Positions 2,993-39,315 of a stretch of 64,000 nt of DNA are shown here, one piece after another (the stretch's first letter is position 1; each line of letters starts with the position of its first letter). Source of the DNA: a virus; the IMG/VR virus record IMGVR_UViG_3300010413_002638, positions 32,001 through 96,000 of that record. One strand, given 5' to 3'. A program made the translations under genes and the position numbers. The notes beneath the pieces are model-generated. The model saw nothing but the letters and a program-made list of their open reading frames with translations, had not been told where the DNA came from and ran no database searches.

Positions 2993-4908
2993 TCAAAAAG
3001 TCGTTGTTTTTGTAATTTGATTCTGTCCGGAATCGCTAGTTGGCAGAGCTTAGCTTCACGTTCCTTATTTTGTCGGTGGTGATCATTCCAATGTGCGACT
3101 CGCCCATGCCACATATGCAAAAAATCGAATACTCGACTTTCCACCCAATCACATCCCATAGAAAGTCTAGCATAAAAGTCGCAATCTTCGCAGCCATAAC
3201 CCCAATAATCCTCACAGAAGCCGCCTACCGCCCAATAGGTTGATCTCCGGCACGCCAATGAGCCTCCCTCAAAATACCCAACAATCCTTTCACAATTCAC
3301 GTTCTTGGTGACTTCTCTAGATTCACATATCAAATCGGTCGATGGCTGATCAGCATATAAAACTGTCTTGCCCATGTGGCAACCATCATGATTCTCTAGG
3401 ATATTAGCCACATTGGTCGTGTAATTGCCTTGAACGAGCATATCGGCATCATGGAGTATTATTTTGTCGGTCAGTGCTTTAGATACACCGTAGTTGAAAG
3501 CCAATGACTTGTTGAACAGCTCCGTGCGTTTGTCTGGCACCAAGTAATAGTAAATCGGCTTTATTTCTTCCAAGTTGATCTTGGTTGTTGTATCTTGCTC
3601 AACTAGGACAGTATGGATTACCGGGTATTGCTGAGCACGTATATTGTTGATAACCGATCTGATGCAAGCTTCTCGGCCAACATTTCGGAAAGGAACAACG
3701 TAAGTTACTTCCGGCATCCGCGATGATTCTGTCGGCCCACATCTTGTTGGTGTTCGCTTCTTAAAGAGGTCTTTGGCGTTCCTCAGATGGTCCGATTTAT
3801 GGTCTATCACCGATGTATCTGAATGCAAATGGAAATAAGCGTCAGAGCCAGCGGCATCCCAAAAGCCTGGTTGTTGTAAGCTGAACTCCCAGACTCGTTG
3901 GCTCCAATCTACGTGTTCCATGCCATAAAGACCATACTCCTCATTGAAGTACCCGCAAGTAGTCAACATATCTCGGTCGAATGCCAGCACCGCCCCGTGT
4001 GGCCGCTCATGGACTACTAATAAGTCCATATCTTTTACTCTGGTCAGAGTGCCACGGTCAGCACCATATACGCCCTCTTGGCGATACATGAAGTGATGCA
4101 TGCCGGTTCTTTGCATGGCTGCTACGTAAAAATGCTCCCATCCTTGTTGCAAGATCTCGATGTCATCATTCAGCATGAGACCATATTTGAAGCGTGATAG
4201 GCACCGTATCAATCTGTTGTGATTTCCAGCTACTCCTATTCGTTGTTGATTCTTGATGACTACAATACCACCCTGTGCAGTCAATTGGTCTAGGTATTCC
4301 AGCAGCTGTGGGTTGGTGCTACCGTCGTCGCTTATAAAGATTGTTGTCTTATGAACGTCAGTATTGGCGAGAACCGAATCAACCAATCTCTTTAGGCAAG
4401 ATAATCTGTTGTAAGAGAGGATGCCTACTCCGATGTTGTTGCTAATCGGGATCGTCGATTTGTCCAGATTCGCTCGAAGTAGAGCGGTGGCGTCGGCGTT
4501 TATACGACGTCCAACTATGCGAGTGCGTTTAGTTGGTGAAACATTTTGTCGTTGAACTTGTCGCGACCTGACTATCTTTTTGGCTCTATCAACTCGTTGT
4601 CTGCCGACTTTTCGGTCTTGGAGCGGAGGTGGAGGTGTTGGGGGTGGTGGGGGAGCAGCAGCTTTCTTGGTTGCTTTGTTCAGTTGTAGCTTGCTGCGAA
4701 TTTTGCCCGTTCGCGGGAATTTGGCTGCTGGTTTGGTAACTTGTGGTGTCGCACGAGTTTCGTTTACTCTGCGAATGTAGCCTCTGCTGATGTATTTGTC
4801 GAAGTATTCGTCCAGTACCACTTTTTGTTTGGCTCGGACTGTCACCTGCATGCCATTTTGGCCTATTAGGAAGACTGAGTAGGTATTAGGATTAATATAC
4901 TCAGGCAT
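2953..4908 (-). CDS. two-domain glycosyltransferase (GT2 plus GT7C/galactosyltransferase-like) with a basic, Pro-rich N-terminal extension
   Basis: GILSYNR, ISDDGS, MLNDD, YGMEHVDW; second domain VVPFRN, FNKSLAFN, LHDAD, GGFCEDYWGYGCEDCDF; AGGGAG RBS before ATG 4908. Confidence 0.85.
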   Translation of the reverse strand: MPEYINPNTYSVFLIGQNGMQVTVRAKQKVVLDEYFDKYISRGYIRRVNETRATPQVTKPAAKFPRTGKIRSKLQLNKATKKAAAPPPPPTPPPPLQDRKVGRQRVDRAKKIVRSRQVQRQNVSPTKRTRIVGRRINADATALLRANLDKSTIPISNNIGVGILSYNRLSCLKRLVDSVLANTDVHKTTIFISDDGSTNPQLLEYLDQLTAQGGIVVIKNQQRIGVAGNHNRLIRCLSRFKYGLMLNDDIEILQQGWEHFYVAAMQRTGMHHFMYRQEGVYGADRGTLTRVKDMDLLVVHERPHGAVLAFDRDMLTTCGYFNEEYGLYGMEHVDWSQRVWEFSLQQPGFWDAAGSDAYFHLHSDTSVIDHKSDHLRNAKDLFKKRTPTRCGPTESSRMPEVTYVVPFRNVGREACIRSVINNIRAQQYPVIHTVLVEQDTTTKINLEEIKPIYYYLVPDKRTELFNKSLAFNYGVSKALTDKIILHDADMLVQGNYTTNVANILENHDGCHMGKTVLYADQPSTDLICESREVTKNVNCERIVGYFEGGSLACRRSTYWAVGGFCEDYWGYGCEDCDFYARLSMGCDWVESRVFDFLHMWHGRVAHWNDHHRQNKEREAKLCQLAIPDRIKLQKQRLFECGWQEEIQKWTQ

Positions 4909-4918
4909 CACTGGCTCC

Positions 4919-5551
4919 CTACCTGACCACTTGTACGTATAATGGCTGGTAGTTCCTAACAGATTCATATAATCGAAATCTGCTCGGCTTCAATACCAGA
5001 TCGCCTTCGTAGGTGCCGCGACCCTTCATAATGAATTCAATAGCTCTTTCATCAATGATTTCGGTCGTCAACACCTCTTGCGTTGGATAAATCCTGCCAA
5101 ATATATCCTTCACCATTCCCGGAGAGGCCATTTTATTCAACGATACTTGTACATCTACCAGTATTAGTTCTCCGTCATTTAAGGCGAAGAAGAACTGGGC
5201 TTGTTCTATTTTTATCAGACGCATTGTCTCGTAAAATGTAACCACGTCTTTTCGCACGAACTCGTTGGCAGCGATGGTGAGTTCGGAAGGGTCTTTGGCT
5301 ACAACGTCTATTTTGTTGCCCGCCCAATCCCCGCACATAACGACGACTTGGTCGTTCTTAGGTTGTCTATATATGAGAACAGCCAAACCAGTGTGACCGT
5401 AATGGCGAATGACGTAGCAGAAGATATCTTTTATATTAGGAGTACCCTCGAAGGGTAATAGAGTAGGATATTTCAATATCTGTGGTAGTTCAGACGTACC
5501 AGACGATCGCGTTTTGGGTGGGGTCGTGGTGCTGAATCGCGTATTTGCCAT
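4919..5551 (-). CDS. hypothetical protein (start uncertain)
   Basis: Long ORF in operon. Confidence 0.6.
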   Translation of the reverse strand: MANTRFSTTTPPKTRSSGTSELPQILKYPTLLPFEGTPNIKDIFCYVIRHYGHTGLAVLIYRQPKNDQVVVMCGDWAGNKIDVVAKDPSELTIAANEFVRKDVVTFYETMRLIKIEQAQFFFALNDGELILVDVQVSLNKMASPGMVKDIFGRIYPTQEVLTTEIIDERAIEFIMKGRGTYEGDLVLKPSRFRLYESVRNYQPLYVQVVR

Positions 5552-5796: not shown

Positions 5797-6309
5797 CTAG
5801 TTGTTTTCGATTCTGGTGAGTTTGTGCTCATAGATATCATATTTGTAAATGTATCCGTCATCTAGATTCCAACAAATATGTACTCCATCCCTATACCCAC
5901 CGAGCCACTGTGATATTAATGGATCAACCCATGTTTTACCGAGACTACCGGCACCGACGGCGGCGAACTTCATTGTCTTTCCATTTACTTCGACGCTCGC
6001 CGTGTCAGCGTATTTATCCTCCGACTCAATACGATTTCTTATAATATCCAGACCTTCTATCAACATATCTCGCTTGCTCTTGCTCTTAGTCGGAGCGGAG
6101 ACTCGGTACCGTTGTTCTGTTCCCGTCGTTTCGTCTTGGGCGGATACGATAGTACCAATAGGAATAGTGCGTTGCGTTGGATTTTTCTTGGGGTCCAGTT
6201 GTGCGACCAGGCGTTTGATGTCCTCGACCGTGTGCACCTCAACCGGTTTCAGGATGTTCGGACTCAATCGTTGTTGCTGCCTCGCCAAGGCTTTGTCCAA
6301 TTGTTCCAT
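5797..6309 (-). CDS. hypothetical protein
   Basis: GGAG RBS, operon continuity. Confidence 0.65.
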   Translation of the reverse strand: MEQLDKALARQQQRLSPNILKPVEVHTVEDIKRLVAQLDPKKNPTQRTIPIGTIVSAQDETTGTEQRYRVSAPTKSKSKRDMLIEGLDIIRNRIESEDKYADTASVEVNGKTMKFAAVGAGSLGKTWVDPLISQWLGGYRDGVHICWNLDDGYIYKYDIYEHKLTRIENN

Positions 6310-6700
6310 CTTCGTTCTCCGAGATTCGCAGCATTATATCTAGCGAACTAACACGCCCGCGACGAATTAATTCATACGCCACATGCAACCAATTTGCCAA
6401 TCGATGCAACACAAAAACAGCCACCAACCAATTTATGAAAGTATTATCAAATATTGGAGGAGCAAACAAACCAAAGAAGGCAGCAACCCATACGCTACTG
6501 CAATACCCACAGCTCCATAAATCGTCCACAAACACTTTGAATGACCGCAAAATGCCGCCCGACGGTGGTCTATCCAAGGGGTAGGTCCACTGTTTCCATT
6601 TATTTTGGAATGGACCTATAAGCTTAGACGAGGTCAGGATTTCTGTTGTTGCTTCCACCGCGATGGCTAACAGCAGCAGAATAAGAATGGTCTCTAGCAT
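6239..6700 (-). CDS. membrane protein, DUF1360-like
   Basis: Hydrophobic segments and a CGYCSSVW motif. Confidence 0.6.
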   Translation of the reverse strand: MLETILILLLLAIAVEATTEILTSSKLIGPFQNKWKQWTYPLDRPPSGGILRSFKVFVDDLWSCGYCSSVWVAAFFGLFAPPIFDNTFINWLVAVFVLHRLANWLHVAYELIRRGRVSSLDIMLRISENEDGTIGQSLGEAATTIESEHPETG

Positions 6701-6945
6701 TACAGGATATATCGACAGTTAGCATTGGAACACTGATTACGTTCTCGATTAGCAATATTTACCAGCATAGTGGGATAGCCGCACTTTGGGCATGTTTGGC
6801 GGGGAATCACGTATTGGCGATTTATTTCCACTTTCTGTCGTTGTGGGTTACGTGCTATCCGCTGAACCGCCACTTTCTTTGTGGGAGCAGCCTTGGGTAC
6901 TACTTGTTTGCGAATGCTACGACTACCACCACCACAACAACCCAT
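6700..6945 (-). CDS. small basic zinc-ribbon protein with N-terminal MGCCGGG
   Basis: CPKC...CSNANC; K/R-rich. Confidence 0.7.
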   Translation of the reverse strand: MGCCGGGSRSIRKQVVPKAAPTKKVAVQRIARNPQRQKVEINRQYVIPRQTCPKCGYPTMLVNIANRERNQCSNANCRYIL

Positions 6946-6947
6946 GA

Positions 6948-7118
6948 CTATGTCCTATTATCAGCACTGAATGCCGGTCGGGGAGCAGCACTGGTAGCAA
7001 GCAGCTTTCTTTTGACCGGCACTGGTATGTTTTTAGGTCTAGTTGGTCGTGGACTACCGGCGTTGTATTTCAACACTCGTAATGGTGCCGTACCTTTAGA
7101 ACAACTTCCGCAGCCCAT
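6948..7118 (-). CDS. small basic protein (56 aa) with N-terminal MGCGSCS (not in the ORF track)
   Basis: Manual translation MGCGSCSKGTAPLRVLKYNAGSPRPTRPKNIPVPVKRKLLATSAAPRPAFSADNRT; GGGAGG RBS; fills the gap between neighbouring genes. Confidence 0.7.
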   Translation of the reverse strand: MGCGSCSKGTAPLRVLKYNAGSPRPTRPKNIPVPVKRKLLATSAAPRPAFSADNRT

Positions 7119-7131
7119 AACTGCCTCCCAT

Positions 7132-7800
7132 CTAGATTTGTATAAATATAGACTCCGGATCTACATGGGCTTCGAAGTCTCTCCACCGGCAGAAAACAAC
7201 TGGTGGTAAATTCAGTTCTACCATCACCTTGTTTTCTTTCTTCTTGGTCCGAGAAACGTTCATTGAGACAGGACCAAGCCAGCAATAAGCATCGAAATGG
7301 AGGTGAGGAAACCACACTTCTGAACATTTTCGACGATCAGTATATTCAGCTTCACTATCCATTGGCCGCAGGATATTCGATTGGAATGTTTGAAACGGAA
7401 CAGCTACCCAATCCCAATTTGGGTGTGGCTTGAAGAACACCATCGGGTATCGTTCAATGTTAGTGCGTTCCGTGAGGATCTTGGCATCATAAGTCGCCTG
7501 GTGCCACCATTCAGTGAACACGGCCTTTTCGGGATTCGTCATGAGGCCATCTAGGCTGAAGTCTTTGCCCTTTTTTGCCTCTATGGCGAAAATAATGTCC
7601 CCGTCAATTGGTATAACATCTGCGACGCCTTCTACTACTTTGACGTCCTCGCCTCGTCCTTCGACACGCCGCCTGCGGAATGGGCGGTTGGACCAATCTG
7701 TCATTAACCTGGCTACGCGACGTTCGTGATTCTTGGCGGTACGAACGTTGGATTTTCCGACTTTGGAGAACTTTTCTTTTTGTTCGTCTGTTAGGTCCAT
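7132..7800 (-). CDS. Holliday junction resolvase-like PD-(D/E)XK nuclease
   Basis: KNHERRVA, ADVIP, AIEAKK and WWHQA pattern of Hjc-like phage resolvases. Confidence 0.7.
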   Translation of the reverse strand: MDLTDEQKEKFSKVGKSNVRTAKNHERRVARLMTDWSNRPFRRRRVEGRGEDVKVVEGVADVIPIDGDIIFAIEAKKGKDFSLDGLMTNPEKAVFTEWWHQATYDAKILTERTNIERYPMVFFKPHPNWDWVAVPFQTFQSNILRPMDSEAEYTDRRKCSEVWFPHLHFDAYCWLGPVSMNVSRTKKKENKVMVELNLPPVVFCRWRDFEAHVDPESIFIQI

Positions 7801-7993: not shown

Positions 7994-8272
7994 CTATGCG
8001 AACCCACCGGCAGCTGTTCGCAGGTAAGTCACAATTGTATTTTGATCCATATAGTGGACGACATAATCGTCCGCTGATTCCAGCTCGAGATAAGTCTTGA
8101 CGGTGGGACTGCCGGATGTGTTGGCGATAGCGGAATCTTCGATTACACGGTGTTCGTGTGATCCAGAGAGTTGAGAAGCTATGTTGCCAGAGATATTATC
8201 CTTGGATACCACATTTCCGACGGCATCAACTTTCAGGAAACCGACTCTAGCAACATGGATATTAATCGCCAT
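7994..8272 (-). CDS. hypothetical protein
   Basis: AGGAG RBS. Confidence 0.65.
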   Translation of the reverse strand: MAINIHVARVGFLKVDAVGNVVSKDNISGNIASQLSGSHEHRVIEDSAIANTSGSPTVKTYLELESADDYVVHYMDQNTIVTYLRTAAGGFA

Positions 8273-8298
8273 TGGAATTCTCCTGGATTATTTTTGAT

Positions 8299-9135
8299 CT
8301 ACTCCAAGTTCATAAATGGAATAGTCAAATCAGTATATTCACTCTGGAAGCCAACTACCTTATATTTATTGATCAGACGATCAACTTCGCCTTTTACGTA
8401 ATTGACTTTCCTAGACATCACTTTTTGAATATAAATCCTATTGGCCAATAGCCTCGGACATAGCGACAAATCAATTAATAACATATTCCTCTGAAATAGC
8501 CGCCGCCCATGCGTTTCTATGAATTCTTGGAGGCCGCCGTTTTCTAAAATGGCGGTACTCTTAACCGGCCCGATACCATAATACCCATCAATAGAATCCG
8601 CTTTGTCTCCGACCAATGCTTTTTGCATGATCGGATTGTTGACGGGGACGGCCATTTCTTCTTGCTTTTTGGGGTCATAGACCTTCGAGCTAGAAAACCA
8701 AAATGGTATCTGCACCATATCCGAGTCTGTGGAGATTATCACGGATTGATGTGGGTGGCGAACCAAAGTCGCAGCATAGATGAGGTCGTCGGCCTCCATT
8801 TGTTTGCGGCTATACTGCCGCACGCCCATCACTTTGAAGAATGCTTTGGCCACCTGTGTCGTTCTGGCGAGATCTTCCGAAATATCTTCGACGTATGTGC
8901 TAGTAGATCTGTCTTTGTACGTCTCAAGCACCATTCGTCGCCAAACAGTGTGACGAGGGGCGTCCCAGAAAATATGCACAGACTCTGGGCGATATTTGTT
9001 CATCCAGGAAGTGAGCTGTCGTAAGAATATCACGAAGTAATGATATTTTATGGTATGACGGCGATCAGCTTTGACAGCGTAAATCGCCCGATACAGCGCG
9101 TTCCGGGCATCTATGAATAGGGCTGGCTTTGTCAT
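8299..9135 (-). CDS. 5'-3' exonuclease / flap endonuclease (T4 RNase H, PolA 5'-exo family)
   Basis: FIDARN, FWD...WR...YK, EADDLI, STDSD, ALVGDKADSIDGYYGIGP (H3TH). Confidence 0.92.
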   Translation of the reverse strand: MTKPALFIDARNALYRAIYAVKADRRHTIKYHYFVIFLRQLTSWMNKYRPESVHIFWDAPRHTVWRRMVLETYKDRSTSTYVEDISEDLARTTQVAKAFFKVMGVRQYSRKQMEADDLIYAATLVRHPHQSVIISTDSDMVQIPFWFSSSKVYDPKKQEEMAVPVNNPIMQKALVGDKADSIDGYYGIGPVKSTAILENGGLQEFIETHGRRLFQRNMLLIDLSLCPRLLANRIYIQKVMSRKVNYVKGEVDRLINKYKVVGFQSEYTDLTIPFMNLE

Positions 9136-9148
9136 AGCGTTAAGATAA

Positions 9149-9182
9149 TTGGCGGGGAAGGGGCACGTCCCTTCCCCGCCAA
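9149..9182 (-). terminator. GC-rich hairpin just downstream of the SSB gene (terminator or processing site)
   Basis: TTGGCGGGGAAGGG-gcacgt-CCCTTCCCCGCCAA, perfect 14-bp stem; only a weak U-rich tail. Confidence 0.65.
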
Positions 9183-9203
9183 CTTGTTGCGCAGAAGACT
9201 GCG

Positions 9204-10391
9204 CTAGTCATCGTCATCTTCCAGTTGGTTCAACAATGCATCAATTTCAGACGATCCAACGTCATCATCATCGTCAGCATCGTCAGCATCGTCATCGTCA
9301 GCATCATCACTGTCAGACTCGTCATCTTCTGGACTATCGAAGTCTTCATCATCAGTCACTGGCTTCTGATCTGGAAGATCATCGTCGTCATCGACGATAG
9401 CATCGTCGTCATCGTCAACGACTTCATCGTCTTTAGGCTTATCCTTCTTGGGCTTATCCTTCTTAGCCTTGTCCTTGGCCTTCTCTTCCTTATCCTTCTT
9501 GACCTTATCCTTGGCTTTATCCTTGGATTTACCCTTGTCCTTTTTGGCTTCCTTTTCGTCGTCATCGCCTACGGTTTCATCGTCATCGAATCCACCGTCG
9601 TCATCGTCGTCATCGTCTCCGTCACTCATGATCCGGAAGGCCCGCTGAATCTTCTCTTCAGTAGGAACTTCGATCTTATCCCACAAATTGTGGCGAAGCG
9701 TCAGCAACTTGGCGATATTCTTCTCGTTCGGTTCACCCTTCTTGCCGATCATCGGAATCGGGATACCATCCGTGGTAATGAACTTGCTGGTCTTGTAGCT
9801 ATTATTCTTTCCTTGCTTCAAGGATTCCAGCTGGAACAAAAAGGCAGCATTTTCGTCGAAGAAGACACCGTGAGCCTGTGGCTCGTCCTCGTCGCCCTTG
9901 TCGTCCCGCAGCAACGCAGCTGTCCAGATATCGAAACAGGTCTTCGGGGCATTGTAGAACTTCACCCGCCCGCGAAGATCTTCCGGGTTGCCTTCCCACT
10001 TGGTAAAGTAAACGTTCACCATATAGTAAGTGGTTGGCATCCATTGCTTCACGATAGCCCGACGTGTTTCCTCGTCGGTCTCATCTTTAAGCAAATCGAA
10101 TCCTTCCGTACAGATGGGGCAATCACTGTTGTCCCACACCCGTGGACAGGGCGTCGGCTTGTTGTGAATCCAATGGTCGGCGTGTGCAATAAAGAATTGA
10201 TCCATTGTATTTTCAACGGTACCACTCTTCAGCACATCGCCTTTCATTAACGGCGGGAGGACAAAGAACCGATATTTGAGCGGTTCTGTGGCCGATTTGG
10301 CGTTGTCCGGACGAAACTGGTCGGGATCGTTGAATTTCCCGCCCATCGACTGCTTCAATCTCTTTCTGATGGCTTCAACATCGTATGGCAT
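9204..10391 (-). CDS. single-stranded DNA-binding protein, T4 gp32-like, with a long acidic/KD tail
   Basis: RFFVLPP, HW...CPR...CPIC, YYMVNVY, SYKTSKF, acidic tail ending IDALLNQL; neighbours a UvsY-like gene; AGGAG RBS. Confidence 0.8.
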   Translation of the reverse strand: MPYDVEAIRKRLKQSMGGKFNDPDQFRPDNAKSATEPLKYRFFVLPPLMKGDVLKSGTVENTMDQFFIAHADHWIHNKPTPCPRVWDNSDCPICTEGFDLLKDETDEETRRAIVKQWMPTTYYMVNVYFTKWEGNPEDLRGRVKFYNAPKTCFDIWTAALLRDDKGDEDEPQAHGVFFDENAAFLFQLESLKQGKNNSYKTSKFITTDGIPIPMIGKKGEPNEKNIAKLLTLRHNLWDKIEVPTEEKIQRAFRIMSDGDDDDDDDGGFDDDETVGDDDEKEAKKDKGKSKDKAKDKVKKDKEEKAKDKAKKDKPKKDKPKDDEVVDDDDDAIVDDDDDLPDQKPVTDDEDFDSPEDDESDSDDADDDDADDADDDDDVGSSEIDALLNQLEDDDD

Positions 10392-28885: not shown

Positions 28886-29528
28886 TAGCCACTATTTCGT
28901 CGTTGATGTTGTACAATGACTGACTTCTAAACACTGTCTGGCACACTCGCTCGATCAACTCATTATCTAGGTCAGTCGTATCCGGGTAATTAGGCGTCGT
29001 TGGTTGTCTTCCCAAGCGGCGTATAAATCCTTCAAATATCGCTGCCGCGCTAGGCATATTAAAATTACAAGTTTGCCAAAATCTGCATAAGTAATTATAT
29101 AGCCTATTTCTGCCACCTTTCTTCAATAACCTGTCGAAGTTATCAACAATAGATTTTACGTGGATCTCTTCTATTTTGGCGGGATCGATCAACTCGATAA
29201 AGTAAGACCTGGCGTAATCGTTGGTGAGATCTGTTTGAAAGATCGTTCGCCTGGACTCTATTACGGCTTGGGTAATTAATTGGCGAACGTTTTCTGCTGA
29301 AAGCCCACATGATAACCCAACGGAAAACGCCTTACTCATATCGCGTAGGCCACGCAACGAATGCCTTTGATCGGTCTTTGCTTGCAACCAATTATCGAGA
29401 TTCGGCACCACCATCTTATGCAACGTATTATCAAATAGTTCTGGTAGATTCGCACTGTCGCGGAAATAAAATAGCTCTCCATCGATCTCGAAAACAGTCA
29501 CCGTTTTCTCAACATATCTAATAATCAT
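28863..29528 (-). CDS. hypothetical protein
   Basis: Long ORF upstream of dnaE-N; start uncertain. Confidence 0.6.
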   Translation of the reverse strand: MIIRYVEKTVTVFEIDGELFYFRDSANLPELFDNTLHKMVVPNLDNWLQAKTDQRHSLRGLRDMSKAFSVGLSCGLSAENVRQLITQAVIESRRTIFQTDLTNDYARSYFIELIDPAKIEEIHVKSIVDNFDRLLKKGGRNRLYNYLCRFWQTCNFNMPSAAAIFEGFIRRLGRQPTTPNYPDTTDLDNELIERVCQTVFRSQSLYNINDEIVANVRRIQS

Positions 29529-30486
29529 GTTATCTAACAATCGAAGAAGAGAAATAAGCGTCGTTGTCGTTTGCGGCGACCAATACCACGATTATCTCCG
29601 AACAGCTATAGACAGCATTCGAAGACAAACCATTCAGCCAGATGAGATAATAATAGTATACGACAACACCGAGCCAAGTATGACCTCCTACCCATATCTA
29701 CAAACACACAATGACAACCCTCTCGCCAGCCGCAGGGACGGATTTGCCGCTACCAGCAAAGAAACAGTCTTTTTCCTAGACGCCGACGACTATATCAGCG
29801 ATGATTATATCGGTTCTGGTCTGGCCCTCAAAACCGACAACAACATAGTCTACTCAGACGTCCGCCTCTTCGGAACAATGAACAAAACATTACGTTATTC
29901 ACCCAAATTCATGTCCCAAGAAAACTATCTGCATGTAGCCAGTCTCATCAGTCGCGACGCAATCGACATAGCAGACGCCTTCAACCCAATACCACCAGTC
30001 GATTGCCATGAAGACTGGGTATTCTGGCGGCGATTATTAAAAGCCGGATGCCCAACTATCAAACAACCTGGCATCCACTACCACCGAGAACATGAACACA
30101 ACCGTTCCAAGAAAATCGTGCAACACGAATTTCCCATAGCCAAGGGAATCTGGTGTGATACTATTGGCTTCGTTCGCGCGGACGGCCAAGAACACGAAGA
30201 GCAAGTCTTACAACAATGGCCACCAGAACAGAGAGAATTATACACCATAGATAACCCGGATATCAGAGCAATCAACAAAATCCTCCAGAGAACAAACGCT
30301 GACTATTTGTTATTCTATAGCACAAAAGACCTACAAATGATTAGAATGATGGCAGATCTAGACTACGGTGTGGCAATTGTCCAAGCCCGTGATTTACCAA
30401 TGTGGTATGGAACACTCATCGTCGTTGACCTACTCAAAGCTCAATCACCGTCTTACACGTTTAACGGCAAATCGATACTGGTCTAA
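29527..30486 (+). CDS. glycosyltransferase family 2
   Basis: ISVVV, SIRRQT..PDEIIIVYD, FLDADD, HEDW. Confidence 0.88.
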   Translation: MLSNNRRREISVVVVCGDQYHDYLRTAIDSIRRQTIQPDEIIIVYDNTEPSMTSYPYLQTHNDNPLASRRDGFAATSKETVFFLDADDYISDDYIGSGLALKTDNNIVYSDVRLFGTMNKTLRYSPKFMSQENYLHVASLISRDAIDIADAFNPIPPVDCHEDWVFWRRLLKAGCPTIKQPGIHYHREHEHNRSKKIVQHEFPIAKGIWCDTIGFVRADGQEHEEQVLQQWPPEQRELYTIDNPDIRAINKILQRTNADYLLFYSTKDLQMIRMMADLDYGVAIVQARDLPMWYGTLIVVDLLKAQSPSYTFNGKSILV

Positions 30487-31232
30487 TGGTAAACAAGATT
30501 TCCATATTGATGGCTATCTATAACTGTGCAGATTATCTGCCAGCGTCCATTGAAAGCATATTAGGCCAAACAGTAGGAGATTTCGAATTTATCATCATAG
30601 ACGACGGCTCAGACGAATCGGTAATGGAGATATTAGAATGGTACAACGACAGGCGTATCAAAATTATCAGAGTCGATGAGAATGTCGGCTTGACCCGTTG
30701 CCTAAACATCGCCTTAGACGTAGCTACTGGCAATATATTCGCACGTCATGACGGGGATGATATTGCATTACCAGACAGACTGGCAATAGAATTACCATTA
30801 CTTACTGGGCGTACCGGTCTAGTGAGCTGCTGGGCGGAGCCCATCAACGAAAATGGAGAGATAATCAAAGACGACTGGACAGAGCAAGAATTGCAAAGAG
30901 AAGCTGATGAAGTAGAAAAGTTGATGTCCCAAACAAACTGCGTGTTGGCCCCAGGAGCAATATTCACCAGAGAAGTGTTCGAACGAATAGGATATTTCGA
31001 TCCAGAAGTCAGATATGCACAAGATTATAATTACTGGTTGCGATTGATGAACGAGTTTACCATCAACATCGTGCCAGAGGTATTAGTGCAAAAGAGAGTC
31101 CATAAAGAATCAGTGTGGGGCCAAGAAGAAGAGCACGACCAAGATTGGCGACAAATAGCCAAAGACAGAGCCACAACAGATCCAACGATTTTTCAAGTAG
31201 AGCATCCCCCATTTCATTGGAGAAGGCATTGA
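30486..31232 (+). CDS. glycosyltransferase family 2
   Basis: ISILMAIYN, EFIIIDDGS, RHDGDD, AQDY. Confidence 0.92.
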   Translation: MVNKISILMAIYNCADYLPASIESILGQTVGDFEFIIIDDGSDESVMEILEWYNDRRIKIIRVDENVGLTRCLNIALDVATGNIFARHDGDDIALPDRLAIELPLLTGRTGLVSCWAEPINENGEIIKDDWTEQELQREADEVEKLMSQTNCVLAPGAIFTREVFERIGYFDPEVRYAQDYNYWLRLMNEFTINIVPEVLVQKRVHKESVWGQEEEHDQDWRQIAKDRATTDPTIFQVEHPPFHWRRH

Positions 31233-32422
31233 AACTTTCACATTACGTAGTTCGTACTTTTTCTGGTGAACAAGATATACTTTTTCATACAGTCACAAGA
31301 AAAGTGCTGCTAGCAGATGCCGATGAGAAAACATTGGCAGAGAATTTCTTTTATGCTGGCCAAGAGAAACAAGCTGTCCTGGCGAAACTCGCACAACCAC
31401 CGGATGGTTGGTTTCACTTTCATTTATCTCCGACCTGGGAATGCAACCTTCGCTGTACACATTGCATGGTACGACATAGACTCATCAAAGATGACACCAA
31501 TATTCTAGAGGTCGCACCAGTAATTCGTTTAGCACAACAAAGCAAACAACTATTCGACGTACGTCGAATGTCAGTGAACTTCTTCGGTGGCGAAAGCATG
31601 CTAGCCATCGATAAATGCAACGAAATCGTCGATGCGTTCAACGGGATTGATCTTGAACTGATGCACTTTCAGTTGTTCACGAACCTCACCATGGAACTAA
31701 CCGACAAGCATCTTGAATTCTTCCGGCAAGTCGATAGTATCGGCGTCAGCATAGACGGTCTGGAACAGATACACAATGCTCAGCGTATGCCGATTTCTCC
31801 CATGAATCCATTCGAAAAAACGATGCAAAATCTCAAAATATTGGTCAAGCAAGGCTGGAAAGAAAAAATCTCGATACAAGCCTGCCTAAGCGACCAACAT
31901 AATACACTAGATAATAGAGTTTCGTTCTACAGAACCATTCTGCAATTTGGCATTCGTCCACATAGGATTATGATTGGAACTATCGCTCCAACCAAGACCA
32001 ATCCCACACCAGGCGACCATTACAAAAAAGGATTGCATCAAGTCAAATTGACTGACGGATTCTGTTGTAAGTATAGATTAAATAATCTGGTCATCGACAA
32101 CACTGGGAATGTCTTCTCAGATTATTATTCATACACCAAAATAGGCACAGTGAATGATGACTTATTGATGCTATTGGGTGAAAAAGAAAAAATTACATTA
32201 GAAACAGCCCCGGCTCTAAATGATCCAAAATGTCAGAAATGCCCAGCACTAGGCTTTTGTTGGGGCGGTTGCTCTGTCACAGAAAATGATGCACCACTTA
32301 GTACATATTGTAACCAAGACGGCATCATAGCTGTTATTGAAGAGGCAGCCAAGCTCGGCCAATTTAAGTTAGGAAATGAAAATGGCCTCCCCATCGACAG
32401 CCAAACCCACTTATTTCACTGA
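31229..32422 (+). CDS. radical SAM/SPASM-domain protein, putative peptide maturase
   Basis: TTG start overlapping the upstream TGA; CNLRCTHC, FFGGE, FTN, VSIDG...HNAQR; SPASM CC...G....CQKCPALGFCWGGC...C; MKLSHY...ILFHTVT N-terminus as in peptide maturases. Confidence 0.88.
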   Translation: MKLSHYVVRTFSGEQDILFHTVTRKVLLADADEKTLAENFFYAGQEKQAVLAKLAQPPDGWFHFHLSPTWECNLRCTHCMVRHRLIKDDTNILEVAPVIRLAQQSKQLFDVRRMSVNFFGGESMLAIDKCNEIVDAFNGIDLELMHFQLFTNLTMELTDKHLEFFRQVDSIGVSIDGLEQIHNAQRMPISPMNPFEKTMQNLKILVKQGWKEKISIQACLSDQHNTLDNRVSFYRTILQFGIRPHRIMIGTIAPTKTNPTPGDHYKKGLHQVKLTDGFCCKYRLNNLVIDNTGNVFSDYYSYTKIGTVNDDLLMLLGEKEKITLETAPALNDPKCQKCPALGFCWGGCSVTENDAPLSTYCNQDGIIAVIEEAAKLGQFKLGNENGLPIDSQTHLFH

Positions 32423-32654
32423 ACAAGAGAGAAAAGAGCTTGGGCTTCCCGATGACCACGATATAGCCGTACTGTTAGACAGATGTAAGGCAAATGATTT
32501 ATCCCCATTTGCTGCCGCCACCAACTCGCTGGGATATGATGTAACCGGCGAGCCGTACTGTTATTGTGGTTTCTGCAAACCAGAGTCCGGGATCAACGGA
32601 ACCTGTAATGGCCCCTCGGCGTCTTTATCTGATACAATACCAATCCCACTCTAG
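32382..32654 (+). CDS. putative RiPP precursor peptide 1 (Cys-rich)
   Basis: AGGA RBS; 90 aa; core PYCYCGFCKPESGINGTC; directly follows the rSAM/SPASM gene. Confidence 0.7.
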   Translation: MASPSTAKPTYFTEQERKELGLPDDHDIAVLLDRCKANDLSPFAAATNSLGYDVTGEPYCYCGFCKPESGINGTCNGPSASLSDTIPIPL

Positions 32655-32662
32655 GAAAGAAA

Positions 32663-32938
32663 ATGACACAATCCCCTACAATCGGCAGGCCCACCTATTT
32701 CACTGAACAAGAGAGAAAAGAGCTTGGACTCCCTGACGACCAAGATATCGCCATAATGTTAGACAGATGCAAAGCAAAGGATTTGTCTCCCTTTGCCGCA
32801 GCTACTAATTCACTAGGGTATGACGTAACCGGCGAGCCATATTGTTATTGTGGCTTCTGCAAACCAGAATCTGGAATCAACGGAACCTGTGATGGTCCTT
32901 CGGCATCATTATCACATTCAGTAGCCGGGCCAGAATAA
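32663..32938 (+). CDS. putative RiPP precursor peptide 2 (paralog of peptide 1)
   Basis: AGGA RBS; 91 aa; near-identical protein with many synonymous DNA differences. Confidence 0.7.
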   Translation: MTQSPTIGRPTYFTEQERKELGLPDDQDIAIMLDRCKAKDLSPFAAATNSLGYDVTGEPYCYCGFCKPESGINGTCDGPSASLSHSVAGPE

Positions 32939-32950
32939 AAAGTACACCCT

Positions 32951-34078
32951 GTGATACATTCCTATCTGGAATATTATTCTCATCCGACAATCAAAAATGC
33001 CAAACGATTGTGGGAATCTATCAGAGAATATGACTATCACGAACCACTAGATGACCTAATCGCTGCTCGCAAAGTCATCAAGCCCAAACTACACTTAGCC
33101 GATCGCTACCTGTTCAGCAACGGAACAGTAGGCAAAACAAGAGCATACCTGATAGGACCGCACGCGGACTTCTGGATCAAACAAATAGAAGACTTCGTAA
33201 AATATCGAACCACCAGATATATCAATATCCTAGATCTATTATCCTTCAACCACCACAAAATAGCTCGAATGCCCGAGCCGATCACAGACGACTCATATTA
33301 TTATATTGCTGCAGCAGACTACCGCCAAATTGACAAATTCATACAGGAATTAGCAAGACTCGGTAATTACGGCTTCAACGCCGCGCCGAACACATGGTTA
33401 TATCTGCTCAGCCTACCGGCATTTCGAGAATTTCTATCATCCCGCCAGATAATATGCTTATCGACCGGCTGGGACGGATTCTATAAACAACCGCCAACCA
33501 ATATCCATATGAACGATAATATGGTAAATTGGACAACCGGGATGAATTTCTATACCTGCCAGTACGGAACCAGACACTACCTACAAACATTCGCAATCGC
33601 ACCAGAAGGCATCGTCAATCTGTTAAACCTGGCTTGCCAACCAGTCTTGCCAGTCGATGATCTCATGCAGATCTCTCCGGTAGTCAAACGTTGTCAGTGT
33701 GGAAGAAATTTTCGCGAAATCTCTTATTTTCCGCATTATATCTGGTTGCCCAAATCATCTGACGGTGAAATAATTTATGATCTACAGCTGGCCGACCACT
33801 TTAAAGCTTCTTATCTGAACTTACAATTTATTCAGATCGGCCAAACAATTGATGTCTTGTATATCTCTAACAGTAACAACGACCTGTTAGAACATGACCA
33901 AAACATCATCACCACATTTTTCGAAAGCCATGGATTGGAGACGGTGTTCAAACGTGATAAATATCGTAGTATCAATCGCAAGTACCATGTTTTTCTTAGA
34001 ATAGCAGCACCAACCACTTACAAATCCTGGAATCTGGTATGCACCAATTCGCAACCGTCATCACAGCCGACCATATAG
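32951..34078 (+). CDS. divergent adenylate-forming enzyme (phenylacetate-CoA ligase/CapK-like)
   Basis: FSNGTVGK (P-loop-like), LSTGW, FYTCQYG..H, LLN...DD, RCQCGR in the family's order. Confidence 0.55.
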   Translation: MIHSYLEYYSHPTIKNAKRLWESIREYDYHEPLDDLIAARKVIKPKLHLADRYLFSNGTVGKTRAYLIGPHADFWIKQIEDFVKYRTTRYINILDLLSFNHHKIARMPEPITDDSYYYIAAADYRQIDKFIQELARLGNYGFNAAPNTWLYLLSLPAFREFLSSRQIICLSTGWDGFYKQPPTNIHMNDNMVNWTTGMNFYTCQYGTRHYLQTFAIAPEGIVNLLNLACQPVLPVDDLMQISPVVKRCQCGRNFREISYFPHYIWLPKSSDGEIIYDLQLADHFKASYLNLQFIQIGQTIDVLYISNSNNDLLEHDQNIITTFFESHGLETVFKRDKYRSINRKYHVFLRIAAPTTYKSWNLVCTNSQPSSQPTI

Positions 34079-34923
34079 ACAAGACGTTGGTGCTTCTTGA
34101 ATCGCTCCGAACATTCAATGAAGCCGAATTACACGCACTAGTCATCGACTATAACCCGCGTATAATGGCCAGCGTCGATTTCGACCACTTGTACGTGCAT
34201 GATCTCCAAGAATTACTAGGAGATAGAGATCACGGCGTTGTTGCCAGAATCATCGCCAACAAATATGCAAACTTGCGCGACGAATTACGCTGGGCACTCA
34301 AAGCCCCATTCATCAAAAGTTTACGCACAGAACATCCAGAAATCTGCTACGTCGATTGCGACCTATGCTTTTATGCCGACTACCAATTTCTGATGGATAA
34401 ATTGGCTACCTCGGCTATCTTGCTCACGCCGCACTGGCGCGAAATAAACCCGATGACTATAGATTTCCGCTACAACTTCAAGCACGGAATCTATAATGCT
34501 GGCTTCGTCGGCTTCGGGAACGGGTGCGAAGAGATGCTCGATTGGTGGGAAGAAATGTGTGCTATCGAATGCACCAAATCCGATCGAGCCTTCACATACG
34601 TTGACCAACGATATTTGGATCTGGTACCAATCTATTTCAACAATGTCGAAATCATACAACACTTTGGTTGTAATGTCGCAGCCTGGAACACCTCTTATCT
34701 CAAACGTGAGGTGGTCGATGGAGAAACCTTAATCCAAGGCGAACCTATTATCTTTATCCATTACTCGCCAATCACCATCGATTATGTCGAGAATGGCAAA
34801 GATAACGCTCTGTATGATTACTACAACCATTATCGACTAGCACTGCGACAAACCCGCAAGAAGCTGGTAGGATTGGGCCTAAAAGACTGCACATCCAAAC
34901 CAGTCGAAGACCAAATATTGTAA
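34039..34923 (+). CDS. GT-A nucleotide-diphospho-sugar transferase
   Basis: ELRWALK, YVDCD, LTPH, GIYNAGF, DQRYLD, GCNVAAWN, FIHYS. Confidence 0.85.
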   Translation: MHQFATVITADHIDKTLVLLESLRTFNEAELHALVIDYNPRIMASVDFDHLYVHDLQELLGDRDHGVVARIIANKYANLRDELRWALKAPFIKSLRTEHPEICYVDCDLCFYADYQFLMDKLATSAILLTPHWREINPMTIDFRYNFKHGIYNAGFVGFGNGCEEMLDWWEEMCAIECTKSDRAFTYVDQRYLDLVPIYFNNVEIIQHFGCNVAAWNTSYLKREVVDGETLIQGEPIIFIHYSPITIDYVENGKDNALYDYYNHYRLALRQTRKKLVGLGLKDCTSKPVEDQIL

Positions 34924-35813
34924 TGAACCACTTTTCGACTGTTATAACAGCGAACCACCTCGACAAAACCCTCGTATTGCTGGATTCACTCAACGAATTC
35001 GGTGAAGCAACATTACATACCCTCGTTGTTGATGAAATCCCAAACATCCAATTCACCAATCTAATCATTTACAGCCTCAAAGACCTAGCAAAGAAACAAT
35101 TGGCCGCCAGAACACTGGCAATAAAACACGCAGAAGAACAAGATGAATTACGATGGGCACTAAAACCCACATTCATGCTACATCTAATGCAAGAATACAC
35201 CAAGCTCTGTCACGTAGACGCAGACATCTGCTTCTATGATGAATACCAATTTCTATTCGACGAATTGAACGATTATCCGGTAATCCTCACGCCGCACTGG
35301 CGTCAGATATATCAATATGGGCCAGATTATATCCATAATTTCAGCGACGGCTTGTACAACGCTGGGTTCATTGGGTTTAGCAGAACGGAACACAAGGGCT
35401 CGAATATGGTGTCAGGTATGAGAGCACTTCGATGGTGGTCGAAAATCTGTGCTAAAGAATGCACGCAATCATCCGAAAATCACACTTACACCGACCAACG
35501 ATACCTGGACCTATTCCCGATCTACTTCCGAGCTAAAGTATTGCGACATTATGGATGTAATGTGGCTGGTTGGAACGCTAGCTATCTACAACGAACCAAG
35601 GAAGACGAACACATCCTCGTTCGTGGCATGCCACTTATCTTCATCCACTTCTCTGAAATTACAGAACGCACCATCGCGGACGGTCTAGATGATTTATTAC
35701 GCGAGCCATACAGAAAATATCTAATCGCATTACAGAAAAAACGCCAGCAGTTGGCAAAAGCAAAACTCGGCATGTGTATTTCTAAACAACGATATCCTTC
35801 TCAGGCAATCTGA
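34923..35813 (+). CDS. GT-A nucleotide-diphospho-sugar transferase (paralog of the previous gene)
   Basis: ELRWALK, HVDAD, LTPH, GLYNAGF, DQRYLD, GCNVAGWN, FIHFS. Confidence 0.85.
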   Translation: MNHFSTVITANHLDKTLVLLDSLNEFGEATLHTLVVDEIPNIQFTNLIIYSLKDLAKKQLAARTLAIKHAEEQDELRWALKPTFMLHLMQEYTKLCHVDADICFYDEYQFLFDELNDYPVILTPHWRQIYQYGPDYIHNFSDGLYNAGFIGFSRTEHKGSNMVSGMRALRWWSKICAKECTQSSENHTYTDQRYLDLFPIYFRAKVLRHYGCNVAGWNASYLQRTKEDEHILVRGMPLIFIHFSEITERTIADGLDDLLREPYRKYLIALQKKRQQLAKAKLGMCISKQRYPSQAI

Positions 35814-37128
35814 AAGGGATTTTCTTCAAATAGTAGCTAGGCTTGTCGCGAAAAGCAGAAATAAATGCTGAAAACGACGACATTCCAGCAACAAAAACAT
35901 CAGCATCTATCATGCTTTTAGCTACCCTATATAATCGCGGATAGACCTGATCGCAAATTTTTACGTTTTCACCGACAAAATCACCCACTAGGTCATTCAC
36001 AGGGCCTTGCGTGTAATAAACGACATTCAATCGTTTGCCAGGATGGTCATCTCTCACACGATCCAACACCCTATCATACTCGCTCTTGGGAATGATTCTG
36101 CCACCATTATCATGTAGCCGACCACCACCACGCACATAGACAGCCACATTCAACACACCAGCCGTCGCCTCGAAATCAGACGCAAAAAAATTATAGAAAT
36201 TAGTCCGTTTAATAAGAGATTCCCACAACCGCAAATTCTTTTGATACAAACCCGGTAGTGTATCACCCTGCTGCTCAGCTTCGAACAATTGCTTGAAACC
36301 AAAAAACGTTGACCTCCTAAGAATAACGCTAGTTCCAGACGGAAGCCCCCGCAAATATTGTCTCGCCAACGTAAGTGGCATACCCCACCACTTCATCTTC
36401 TCATCTGGCGTGTAAATGTCGCAAGCTGGTTCCTCAATGCTGTGCTTATCGAAAAAATCCGCGAAATTGAAATAATAGTTAAACATCTCCTCGCCCCATT
36501 CATGCGGATAAAAGCCAGTATAATGATACCCAAGACCAAAAATATCCGCCAAAATAGGGCCACTCACAATATCATTAAATTGATGACCTATGCGGCCCCA
36601 TTCCGGGAGCATCGACAACCATATATTCCTAGGGTTCGTAACGGGTGGTAAAAACTCCAACAACTCCGACTCATCAATCACCCTTAACAGTTCGCCCTGG
36701 CGCTGCTCGAATTCTTGTTCATCAACACCCACCATCAGTCTTTTACTATTGGGGCGCTTCAAAACGATCATACCGGGTATGATAGTAACAGAATCGACTT
36801 CTTCCAGCCGCCTAATTTCTAGAATATCCCGCCATCTTTCGACGCACCTGATTATTAGCAAGCACCCATTATCATTTAAGCGCGAGATTGCTGCATGAAA
36901 GTTGTCCTGCACGACCACATCATTCAACAAAATAAGATCATACTTTCTGGCACAACTTGCAAAGAAACTAGAAGCAGAACCGCGAAAATTACCACCGGCT
37001 GTCGGATGAACACCAGTTTTATCTGTCAAACTTATCCGACTAAATATCGCATCGTCACACCCCAGCTCTAAATAGGACGAAAAAGAATATCTGTCGGCTA
37101 AAGAGTTCAATAGTTGGGTTATATTCAT
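35782..37128 (-). CDS. degenerate methyltransferase domain fused to a GT11/GT23-like (fucosyltransferase-type) domain
   Basis: YLELGC, YDLIL; GRIGHQ, VAVYVRGG, ADVFVAGMSSFS. Confidence 0.6.
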   Translation of the reverse strand: MNITQLLNSLADRYSFSSYLELGCDDAIFSRISLTDKTGVHPTAGGNFRGSASSFFASCARKYDLILLNDVVVQDNFHAAISRLNDNGCLLIIRCVERWRDILEIRRLEEVDSVTIIPGMIVLKRPNSKRLMVGVDEQEFEQRQGELLRVIDESELLEFLPPVTNPRNIWLSMLPEWGRIGHQFNDIVSGPILADIFGLGYHYTGFYPHEWGEEMFNYYFNFADFFDKHSIEEPACDIYTPDEKMKWWGMPLTLARQYLRGLPSGTSVILRRSTFFGFKQLFEAEQQGDTLPGLYQKNLRLWESLIKRTNFYNFFASDFEATAGVLNVAVYVRGGGRLHDNGGRIIPKSEYDRVLDRVRDDHPGKRLNVVYYTQGPVNDLVGDFVGENVKICDQVYPRLYRVAKSMIDADVFVAGMSSFSAFISAFRDKPSYYLKKIPFRLPEKDIVV

Positions 37129-38108
37129 AAGACACTTTTGATGATATCTGCGAATCTTTTTGCTAGATATTTTTTGTCGCGACCTTTCATTGCATTTTGG
37201 AAGGCCAGCACTCGCATTTCATCATATTCAGGATAATTGGCTAGTATGTCAGCTAATATTTTCTCCAAGTCCGAAAAATCAGTCTTACATACAACATACG
37301 GAATATCAGGCCAAGAAACGGCAAAAGAAGTATCTGGCTTAATTAGAACCGCTCCCACCAGAGCGGCCTCAAAATCTCGAAAACACGTAATATCATATCC
37401 CCAAGGAGATAAACATACCTTGCTTCGTGTCATTATATCGAAATATTCTTGAAAATCAACAAACGTATCGCTGGATGGTATGCGAACTCTAACATTATAT
37501 CTATCCCGCAAATCACAAACAGTATTCACCGCCACCTGGCGATGAAGGCGAGTTTCGGCATCTGGATAGAATTCGCCTATGTCGCCAAGCATCATAGATA
37601 TATCCAATTCCTTTTGTTGATCCAACACAAAAGGTAGTTTCTGATAAATGGGACGTTGGAAATGTTCCCAAGATATAAGATTAGCAAAAACATGTATCTT
37701 ATCAGAAAGATGACTCACGCGAGGCTGTCGCATTAACGTTGGTTCGCGATCAGCCATTATTGCAACATGCTTCTTATAGCAGTAAAATTCCTTATCATAG
37801 TCCAATGGATCTACGAATTTGGACGTCTTCATCATTGCCTTGACATTGTCGCGTATTAAGAATTCGCGTAGATTCCACCAATTGATCTCCGGACCCAAAT
37901 AGAGATCATGTAAAATAGTGGGTTTATCGTCGTCCAGCACGCGACGCACATAATCGACGTCCCGTGAGCCCTGAACTAATTTGATATCGCCTGGGCCGTC
38001 CGTAAAGATGATGCCCAGGGCACGTAATTCATCCTCTAGGCGTAGCCAGCATTGCAAATGAAAATTGAAATATCTAGCACAATTTGGTTTAATATCGAGC
38101 TTGATCAT
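37125..38108 (-). CDS. GT-B glycosyltransferase
   Basis: SKVCLSPWGYDITCFRDFEAALVGAVLIKPD. Confidence 0.75.
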   Translation of the reverse strand: MIKLDIKPNCARYFNFHLQCWLRLEDELRALGIIFTDGPGDIKLVQGSRDVDYVRRVLDDDKPTILHDLYLGPEINWWNLREFLIRDNVKAMMKTSKFVDPLDYDKEFYCYKKHVAIMADREPTLMRQPRVSHLSDKIHVFANLISWEHFQRPIYQKLPFVLDQQKELDISMMLGDIGEFYPDAETRLHRQVAVNTVCDLRDRYNVRVRIPSSDTFVDFQEYFDIMTRSKVCLSPWGYDITCFRDFEAALVGAVLIKPDTSFAVSWPDIPYVVCKTDFSDLEKILADILANYPEYDEMRVLAFQNAMKGRDKKYLAKRFADIIKSVL

Positions 38109-39206: not shown

Positions 39207-39315
39207 TATACATCTCCTGCCGGTGTAAACATCACCAAGTCTATATACCTGGTAATTCTGTGTTGTGGTTATATCCAGCAAAAGCCCCTCAACCTGAGGG
39301 ACGGCGACGGGGAGG

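Follow-up and report, generated by a model that had tools for sequence, protein, structure and literature searches.

Layout of the locus

The subject of this analysis is a pair of small, tandemly arranged peptide genes, A and B, carried by a stretch of 64,000 nucleotides that corresponds to positions 32,001 to 96,000 of the IMG/VR virus record IMGVR_UViG_3300010413_002638. The whole stretch is referred to here as the window, and coordinates without further qualification are those of the window. The two genes lie between one for a radical S-adenosylmethionine (rSAM) enzyme with a SPASM domain and one for a protein with the predicted fold of PaaK-family ligases. Since the record is 112,804 nt in length and 32% complete by CheckV, the window is a fragment of a phage of roughly 350 kb. 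Its genes include those for a split DnaE-type polymerase, for DnaB, for a helicase and for an SbcC-like nuclease, and the polymerase piece is closest, at 26%, to an uncultured 595-kb phage. The genes and translation signals in question are the following:

31229 to 32422, plus strand: radical SAM/SPASM enzyme, 397 amino acids (aa); its TTG start overlaps the stop of the upstream glycosyltransferase family 2 (GT2) gene
32371 to 32374, plus strand: AGGA Shine-Dalgarno sequence of peptide A, 7 nt 5' of the ATG at 32382, read from the sequence
32382 to 32654 (alternative start 32376), plus strand: peptide A, 90 aa (92 aa from 32376)
32508 to 32630, plus strand: the compared 41 codons FAAATN..SASLS, copy A
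32653 to 32656, plus strand: AGGA Shine-Dalgarno sequence of peptide B, 6 nt 5' of its ATG and overlapping the TAG stop of A
32663 to 32938, plus strand: peptide B, 91 aa
32792 to 32914, plus strand: the compared 41 codons FAAATN..SASLS, copy B
32951 to 34078, plus strand: PaaK-fold (ANL superfamily) ATP-dependent ligase-like protein (predicted), 375 aa

Peptide A is made up of a leader-like segment, YFTEQERKELGLPDDHDIAVLLD, a cysteine motif, YCYCGFCKPESGINGTCN, and the tail SDTIPIPL. Peptide B has the same leader and cysteine motif, except for D in place of N after the last cysteine, and a diverged tail, SHSVAGPE. By repeat search, the two co-oriented genes form a direct repeat of 252 nt with 81% identity and a start-to-start distance of 284 nt. 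The arrangement TAGGAAA..GAAAATG precedes both genes, so that the ribosome-binding site is included in the duplicated unit. Since a single nucleotide separates the AGGA from the ATG at 32376, 32382 is the likelier start of A. Peptide A is absent from the IMG gene calls, whereas an entry with exactly the sequence of peptide B exists for the 112,804-nt contig. A scan for promoters and terminators gave nothing above the shuffled expectation. At the upstream boundary, the last 41 nt of the rSAM gene (32382-32422) overlap peptide A in another frame; the overlap is 4 nt in the orthologue from a related phage (locus L003, below), and the C-terminal tail of the rSAM enzyme is not conserved.

Selection on the two copies and age of the duplication

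Over the 41 codons from FAAATN to SASLS, A and B differ by 20 synonymous changes and a single non-synonymous one, an AAT/GAT exchange that replaces N by D after the last cysteine. This reproduces exactly the count given in a preliminary description of the locus. By the Nei-Gojobori method, which was used throughout with Fisher tests for P, the stretch holds S=30.0 synonymous and N=93.0 non-synonymous sites, with pS=0.667, pN=0.011, dS=1.65, dN=0.011 and dN/dS=0.007 (P=1.1e-14). Codons 10-84 give much the same picture (31 synonymous and 5 non-synonymous differences; dS 1.24, dN 0.029, dN/dS=0.024, P=1.5e-19), and the peptide gene as a whole has dN/dS=0.09. Because the synonymous changes are mostly transitions (26:5 relative to transversions), the test was repeated with kappa values of 1 to 10. 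Across this range, a synonymous fraction of 0.26-0.33 is expected, and at least 20 of 21 differences would be synonymous with a probability of 2.5e-11 to 2.9e-9. A and B are therefore both translated and strongly constrained by purifying selection, which bears out the preliminary description on this point (dN/dS 0.007-0.02, with an AGGA 6-7 nt before each ATG). Also borne out is its remark that the extreme ends have diverged: codons 1-9 have a dN of 0.48, and the last 7 codons (DTIPIPL vs HSVAGPE) differ by 9 non-synonymous and 2 synonymous changes.

The duplication is old on a neutral scale, with a dS of 1.2-1.6, as had been proposed. Its age is nonetheless only relative: the two copies are closer to one another (82% identity) than to P0008, the nearest known relative (64-66%), which places the duplication after the split from that lineage. 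As a separate observation, the N-terminus of A is more derived than that of B relative to P0008. The longest run of identity between the copies is 32 nt, spanning the 10 codons YFTEQERKEL of the leader (32409-32440 and 32693-32724). A gene-conversion tract in the leader was considered and rejected, since a run of this length is within chance (P=0.07) and gives no sign of recent conversion. Comparisons beyond A and B add little to the estimates: loci L003 and L004, from two strains of a related phage, are 99.9% identical with zero differences in the module and are uninformative for dN/dS, and the other homologues for which DNA is available, at ~33% protein identity, are saturated.

As the window comes from a metagenome assembly, the tandem pair might be an artefact in which two strain alleles were placed side by side, the apparent paralogues being orthologues from two strains. 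A 1,250-nt Logan contig lends this some weight: it encodes a hybrid, P0003, with the N-terminus of A (MASPSTAKP) followed by the remainder of B, so that collapsed or single-copy forms exist in other data. The copies differ, however, in 19-22% of their nucleotides, while the flanking rSAM and ligase genes are single and show no second allele. The junction of A and B is a clean gene boundary, with a stop overlapping the AGGA, a spacer and an ATG, and the two copies have different unique ends. The junction of the hybrid itself falls in the 32-nt stretch that is identical in A and B, as expected of a k=31 graph built on a true tandem repeat with a shared 32-mer. P0003 may be such an assembly collapse or possibly a genuine single-copy recombinant, and an artefactual origin of the pair is regarded as highly improbable.

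Recurrence of the module

The module, defined as rSAM/SPASM, peptide and PaaK-like genes in that order, was searched for in IMG/VR. Including the window, five modules with a peptide gene between the rSAM and ligase genes are found, and the four others lie in huge-phage records (coordinates of the three genes in order):

L003: 6814..8004 / 8001..8279 / 8272..9378; 92.5-kb record, with a near-identical strain, L004
L007: 5001..6137 / 6148..6360 / 6317..7483; same 92.5-kb record as L003
L015: 2670..3812 / 3822..3995 / 3959..5083; 340-kb record
L019: 2995..4167 / 4151..4351 / 4345..5451; 354-kb record, 98% complete

The phage with L003 and L007 therefore holds two diverged copies of the module, in which the rSAM enzymes are 38-47% and the ligases 39-43% identical to those of the window. 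Their peptides have the leader motif in common and differ in their cysteine cores. Since the flanking genes differ between loci, the three genes form a unit that travels together. Every other module has one peptide gene, and the tandem pair is found only in the phage of the window. The recurrence of the module, with a conserved leader and differing cores, lends strong support to the preliminary description of A and B as precursor peptides.

The peptide family: leader and core

Relatives of the peptides were sought among all 1.84 billion cluster representatives and by word-indexed searches of a 5.8-billion-protein set. The family is very rare, and the protein-set searches gave only four true relatives:

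P0001: B with one change, A88V; independent 8,379-nt JGI contig
P0008: 64-67% identical to A; Logan / ENA
P0006: 39-42% identical to A; JGI
P0007: 32-36% identical to A; Logan, with a near-identical form on the IMG/VR records of L003 and L004

Two other candidates matched by peptide A, the giant multi-domain proteins P0004 (1426 aa) and P0005 (3172 aa), were rejected; the score of P0004 arises from five identical repeats at 29% identity that do not cover the cysteines. The peptides match no family in Pfam, NCBIfam, PHROGs or PADLOC and have only sub-threshold look-alikes in the ESM Atlas. A blastn comparison with GenBank phages gave no match. When 185,579 prokaryote species genomes were scanned with pattern seeds, neither the peptide nor the ligase had a relative among them, and a scan of the same kind through JGI metagenome contigs yielded no relative of the peptide. 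The A-B junction was also sought as an exact pattern among metagenome contigs, and the shared 32-mer among viral contigs; neither was seen, with records near the window possibly masked.

Near the N-terminus the aligned peptides share the motif [YFL]-T-[ED]-x-E-x-x-x-[LF]-G-[LI]-P and, after it, acidic residues ([DE][DE]). The columns without variation are, in the leader, T13, E16 and P23 and, in the core, C60 and C62. Family-wide, the invariant feature of the core is C-x-C, which is extended to Y-C-x-C-x-F-C...G..G..C in the closer relatives. In all distant comparisons, identity to A is greater in the leader block of 23 residues than in the rest:

L007 peptide: leader 54.5%, rest 16.7%
P0007: leader 43.5%, rest 29.8%
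L019 peptide: leader 39%, rest 30%
L015 peptide: leader 30%, rest 21%

A conserved recognition part joined to differing cysteine-bearing cores, beside an rSAM/SPASM enzyme, is the classical signature of precursors of peptides that are made ribosomally and modified post-translationally (RiPPs). As for predicted structure, the AlphaFold2 model of the peptide has a mean predicted local distance difference test score (pLDDT) of 50.6 with helices in the leader only, and the ESM Atlas model a pLDDT of 0.42.

These comparisons modify the preliminary description in two respects. The 41 codons had been treated as a core, and between A and B they are perfectly kept except for the N/D exchange; they are not one unit, as only the cysteine motif is conserved family-wide. 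The segment FAAATNSLGYDVTGEP, inside the 41 codons, differs between phages; that A and B agree in it perfectly reflects a lineage-specific constraint that covers the whole 75-residue block. The tails, in turn, had been thought to vary freely. That of B has drifted, whereas A keeps the family ending S-D-[ST]-I-P; its SDTIPI matches SDSIPI of P0006 and SASIP of P0007, which makes the ending of A ancestral. The original interpretation is thus partly supported, with purifying selection and the precursor reading retained and the unity of the core and the freedom of the tails corrected.

The cysteines also admit an explanation in which A and B are accessory metal-binding proteins (Zn or Fe-S, through CxCxxC...C), for example an electron donor or chaperone for the rSAM enzyme, duplicated for dosage. 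Four cysteines (C62, C64, C67 and C77) are invariant among the closer relatives, the 75-residue block is constrained throughout as for a folded protein, and there is no peptidase or exporter in the modules, all of which would suit such a protein. A conserved metal site should nevertheless keep the number and spacing of its ligands, and these vary from module to module: CxCx2Cx9C in the window, CxCx6Cx9C in L007, CxCx9CxxC in L019, and CxC only, near the C-terminus, in L015. Moreover, the N-terminal motif is more strongly conserved than the cysteine region, and no fold is predicted for the peptide. A metal-binding role is accordingly judged unlikely.

The radical SAM/SPASM enzyme and the PaaK-fold protein

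The first gene of the module encodes an enzyme with the motif CNLRCTHC and a C-terminal CxxCxxxxxCxxxC...C. It matches Pfam PF04055 (3.6e-10) with the radical SAM CX3CX2C core present, and its SPASM domain scores 35.2 bits against TIGR04085 in NCBIfam, above the cut-off of 27. Identity to the L003 orthologue is 47%, and none of the Fe-S cysteines differs between the two; across four orthologues the invariant cysteines are C72/C76/C79, C279/C280, C335/C338/C344/C348 and C361. The best NCBIfam equivalogs are PapB (66.3 bits, cut-off 340), HxsB (63.5, cut-off 370) and anSME (62), and the SCIFF maturase profile gives 43.8 bits (cut-off 425), so the nearest named families are peptide maturases (PapB, HxsB, CcpM and the SCIFF maturase). 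Among solved structures, CteB is the closest to it in sequence (5wgg, E=5.4e-14). In the HxsB match, which pairs residues 42-251 of the 435-aa open reading frame (ORF) with profile positions 32-235, the N-terminal extension of the window's enzyme aligns with the N-terminus of HxsB. PADLOC returned generic viperin-type rSAM matches only.

For the third gene product, searches of Pfam, NCBIfam, PDB sequences, PHROGs and PADLOC gave no sequence-family match. An AlphaFold2 model built with 7 homologues is of moderate quality (pLDDT 65, predicted template modelling score 0.60), and its top 30 Foldseek matches in the PDB are all PaaK-family or ANL enzymes, among them ClxA (9s45), NatL2 (6tm4), BT_0428 (4r1m) and PaaK1 (2y27), with E values of 8e-8 to 1e-5 and a probability of 1.0. 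A glycine-rich S-x-G-T-x-G loop is present in three ligases, as SNGTVGK in the window, SNGTSGY in L003 and SGGTTGN in L007. S56 and G58 are invariant in the 7-sequence ligase alignment, as are D236/D237 and K344. The product is therefore predicted to be a PaaK-fold ATP-dependent ligase.

Genomic neighbourhood

The module of the window is surrounded by further genes, of which several appear to act on sugars:

29527-30486, plus strand: GT2 glycosyltransferase (PF00535, 1.9e-11), upstream of the module
30486-31232, plus strand: GT2 glycosyltransferase (PF00535, 1.4e-24), directly upstream of the rSAM gene
34039-34923, plus strand: ~295-aa DxD protein, presumed glycosyltransferase-like
34923-35813, plus strand: paralogous ~295-aa DxD protein, presumed glycosyltransferase-like
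37125-38108, minus strand: sugar-transferase-like gene, weak RXYLT1_C match
38109-39653, minus strand: actin-like protein, Pfam Volactin PF25216 (3.2e-40, above cut-off), syntenic with a 521-aa L003 homologue
39744-41162, minus strand: sugar-transferase-like gene, GT2 with a weak MptE-like region
44023-45090: second, unrelated radical SAM gene, 10 kb downstream (355 aa, PF04055, 3.7e-11)

The GT2 pair is syntenic in L003 and is not found with the other modules. The two DxD proteins lie outside the constant core of the module and have no match in Pfam, NCBIfam, PHROGs or PDB sequences; they probably belong to a GT-A-like family not described before. Identity between the two is 48%, and the only copy in L003 is 62% identical to one and 47% to the other; the L007, L015 and L019 modules lack them. 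Since the paralogues share 48% and one of them is closer to the L003 copy (62% against 47%), that duplication is much older than the one of the peptide, and the idea that the DxD pair was duplicated together with the peptides was rejected. Overall, the module lies in a glycosyltransferase-rich stretch common to the window and L003. No leader peptidase or ABC transporter family was detected among the scanned neighbours in the window, nor beside the L007, L015 and L019 modules.

Another role for the peptide could be that of a scaffold or carrier for the ligase, in the manner of pearlin or LysW, or that of a precursor of a small cofactor. Under this logic the rSAM enzyme would act on an appended or excised moiety. 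The rSAM/SPASM enzymes that make pyrroloquinoline quinone (PQQ) and mycofactocin from peptides are a precedent, the ligase is the constant partner of the peptide, and sugar-transferase genes are nearby in the window and L003. The last of these supports is local, however, as the glycosyltransferase genes are missing from three of the five modules. C-terminal carrier chemistry also fits poorly with C-termini that are not conserved, the peptides ending at the last cysteine or 8-15 residues beyond it and A and B having different tails. Cofactor precursors, for their part, keep a short core unchanged and leave the remainder free, which does not match the 75 residues under constraint in A and B. A role as carrier or cofactor precursor is judged unlikely, slightly more so than a metal-binding one.

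Proposed pathway and comparison with known systems

The probable explanation, and the one favored here with reasonable confidence, is that A and B arose by tandem duplication of the precursor gene of an rSAM/SPASM - cysteine peptide - PaaK-fold ligase module that belongs to a clade of huge uncultured phages. In the proposed pathway, an AGGA site of its own serves the translation of each peptide, as selection on both copies demonstrates. The N-terminal motif would be the leader through which the rSAM/SPASM enzyme recognises and docks the peptide, in keeping with the conservation of the motif beside a variable core. The enzyme would then cross-link the C-terminal cysteine motif, most likely through thioether bonds of the sactionine or ranthionine type, a chemistry suggested by a weak resemblance to maturases of the CteB/PapB type. 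The third protein, judging by its fold, may activate a carboxylate with ATP and then ligate or cyclise the product. Since the module lacks a peptidase and an exporter, and constraint between A and B extends over all 75 residues of the block, that product may be a cross-linked mini-protein of ~90 residues instead of a short excised core. Two near-identical products would result, with minor variant ends (the N/D position and the tail), and the copies would be kept most likely for the dosage of a stoichiometric substrate. Synonymous drift may in turn have rendered the repeat recombinationally stable.

Several observations weigh against this explanation. In L021 (2977-5294 of a 354-kb, 98%-complete record), an rSAM/SPASM gene adjoins one for a PaaK-like protein and a recognisable peptide is missing between the two, which suggests that the enzymes may act on another substrate. 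A profile search of the whole L021 genome found a single family peptide, the one of L019; the L021 pair may share it or act on a different substrate. None of the modules contains a leader peptidase, double-glycine site, immunity gene or transporter. The NCBIfam maturase matches of the enzyme are all far below the family cut-offs, Pfam detects no RiPP recognition element (RRE)/PqqD domain in it at E<=0.01, and its N-terminal extension is ~60 aa, as compared with ~90 aa in CteB. The prediction that the peptide has no fold comes from a shallow alignment of 6 sequences and is weak evidence. Finally, dosage as the reason for keeping two copies is putative, as are the chemistry, with cysteine thioether cross-links followed by ATP-dependent ligation, and the biological role.

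Among characterized systems, the module most resembles those of SCIFF/CteB, the PapB ranthipeptides and the sactipeptides, in which an rSAM and SPASM enzyme stands beside a small cysteine peptide with a conserved N-terminal part. RiPP clusters commonly contain several copies of the precursor. The peptides described here differ in that they lack the SCIFF and Cx3D motifs and belong to no NCBIfam family, and the enzyme does not approach the cut-offs of the corresponding maturases. In contrast to other thioether rSAM RiPPs, the peptide has a considerable length (57-92 aa), an RRE is not detectable, a peptidase and an exporter are missing, a PaaK-fold ligase is a constant member, and the module is found in huge phages only.

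Two systems provide precedents for a mini-protein product. In methanogens, the RS-SPASM enzyme CrpC cross-links the adjacent cysteine-rich protein CrpA to give a protein ranthionine (PMC13692751). There, too, an adjacent cysteine-rich protein is modified and not a short peptide, which would fit the lack of leader-removal genes here. The system differs in being archaeal and cellular, and the abstract of that study mentions no ligase partner. The second precedent is HxsA of HXS (HxsA-D), an anti-phage system in which a small protein effector matured by an rSAM enzyme takes part in phage-host conflict (PMC13128918). HxsB is the second-best NCBIfam match of the window's enzyme, the N-terminal extension included. 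The match of 63.5 bits is nonetheless well short of the cut-off of 370, and the module has a single rSAM enzyme, no HxsC, no HxsD and a phage in place of a host as its carrier. No His-Xaa-Ser repeats are present in A or B.

Virus-borne clusters for the modification of ribosomal peptides have been described before. The phage RiPP and bacteriocin clusters, such as that of sublancin on SPbeta, come nearly all from temperate phages whose hosts are cultured; antiSMASH classed them as bacteriocins, a few of them glycocins or lanthipeptides, and export and immunity genes accompany them (bioRxiv 10.1101/2020.10.01.322628). The module shares with these clusters its viral location and differs in being an rSAM/SPASM-ligase system of huge phages with no cellular homologue found. 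Turning to the third gene, its product resembles the PaaK-family AMP ligases PaaK1, NatL2, AjiA1 and ClxA in fold (Foldseek probability 1.0) and in the S-x-G-T-x-G loop. Identity to them is 11-14%, and there is no match to Pfam AMP-binding or NCBIfam. To our knowledge, the known members of the PaaK family act on small aromatic acids, not peptides.

Significance

Selection on both copies is direct evidence, independent of the assembly, that these two unannotated ORFs of ~90 codons are real genes. What this analysis adds is a quantified test of selection, a family-wide comparison of leader and core, a predicted fold for the third gene product and a tandem duplication unique to this phage. Together with the recurrence of the module, selection makes a phage-only radical-SAM/ligase peptide pathway experimentally tractable, since it offers three small genes, two natural substrate variants and, from related phages, at least four further natural combinations of leader and core.

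A wider proposal is put forward tentatively, as one that may well prove wrong. The module might represent a virus-specific class of radical-SAM cross-linked, ATP-ligated mini-proteins that huge phages make during infection, without a cellular counterpart, and that might inhibit host defence or block superinfection; the two copies would have been held for so long because the supply of peptide limits the pathway. An rSAM/SPASM system conserved in huge phages would be a new kind of viral biochemistry, and the PaaK-fold ligase would be a new partner enzyme for RiPP-like pathways.

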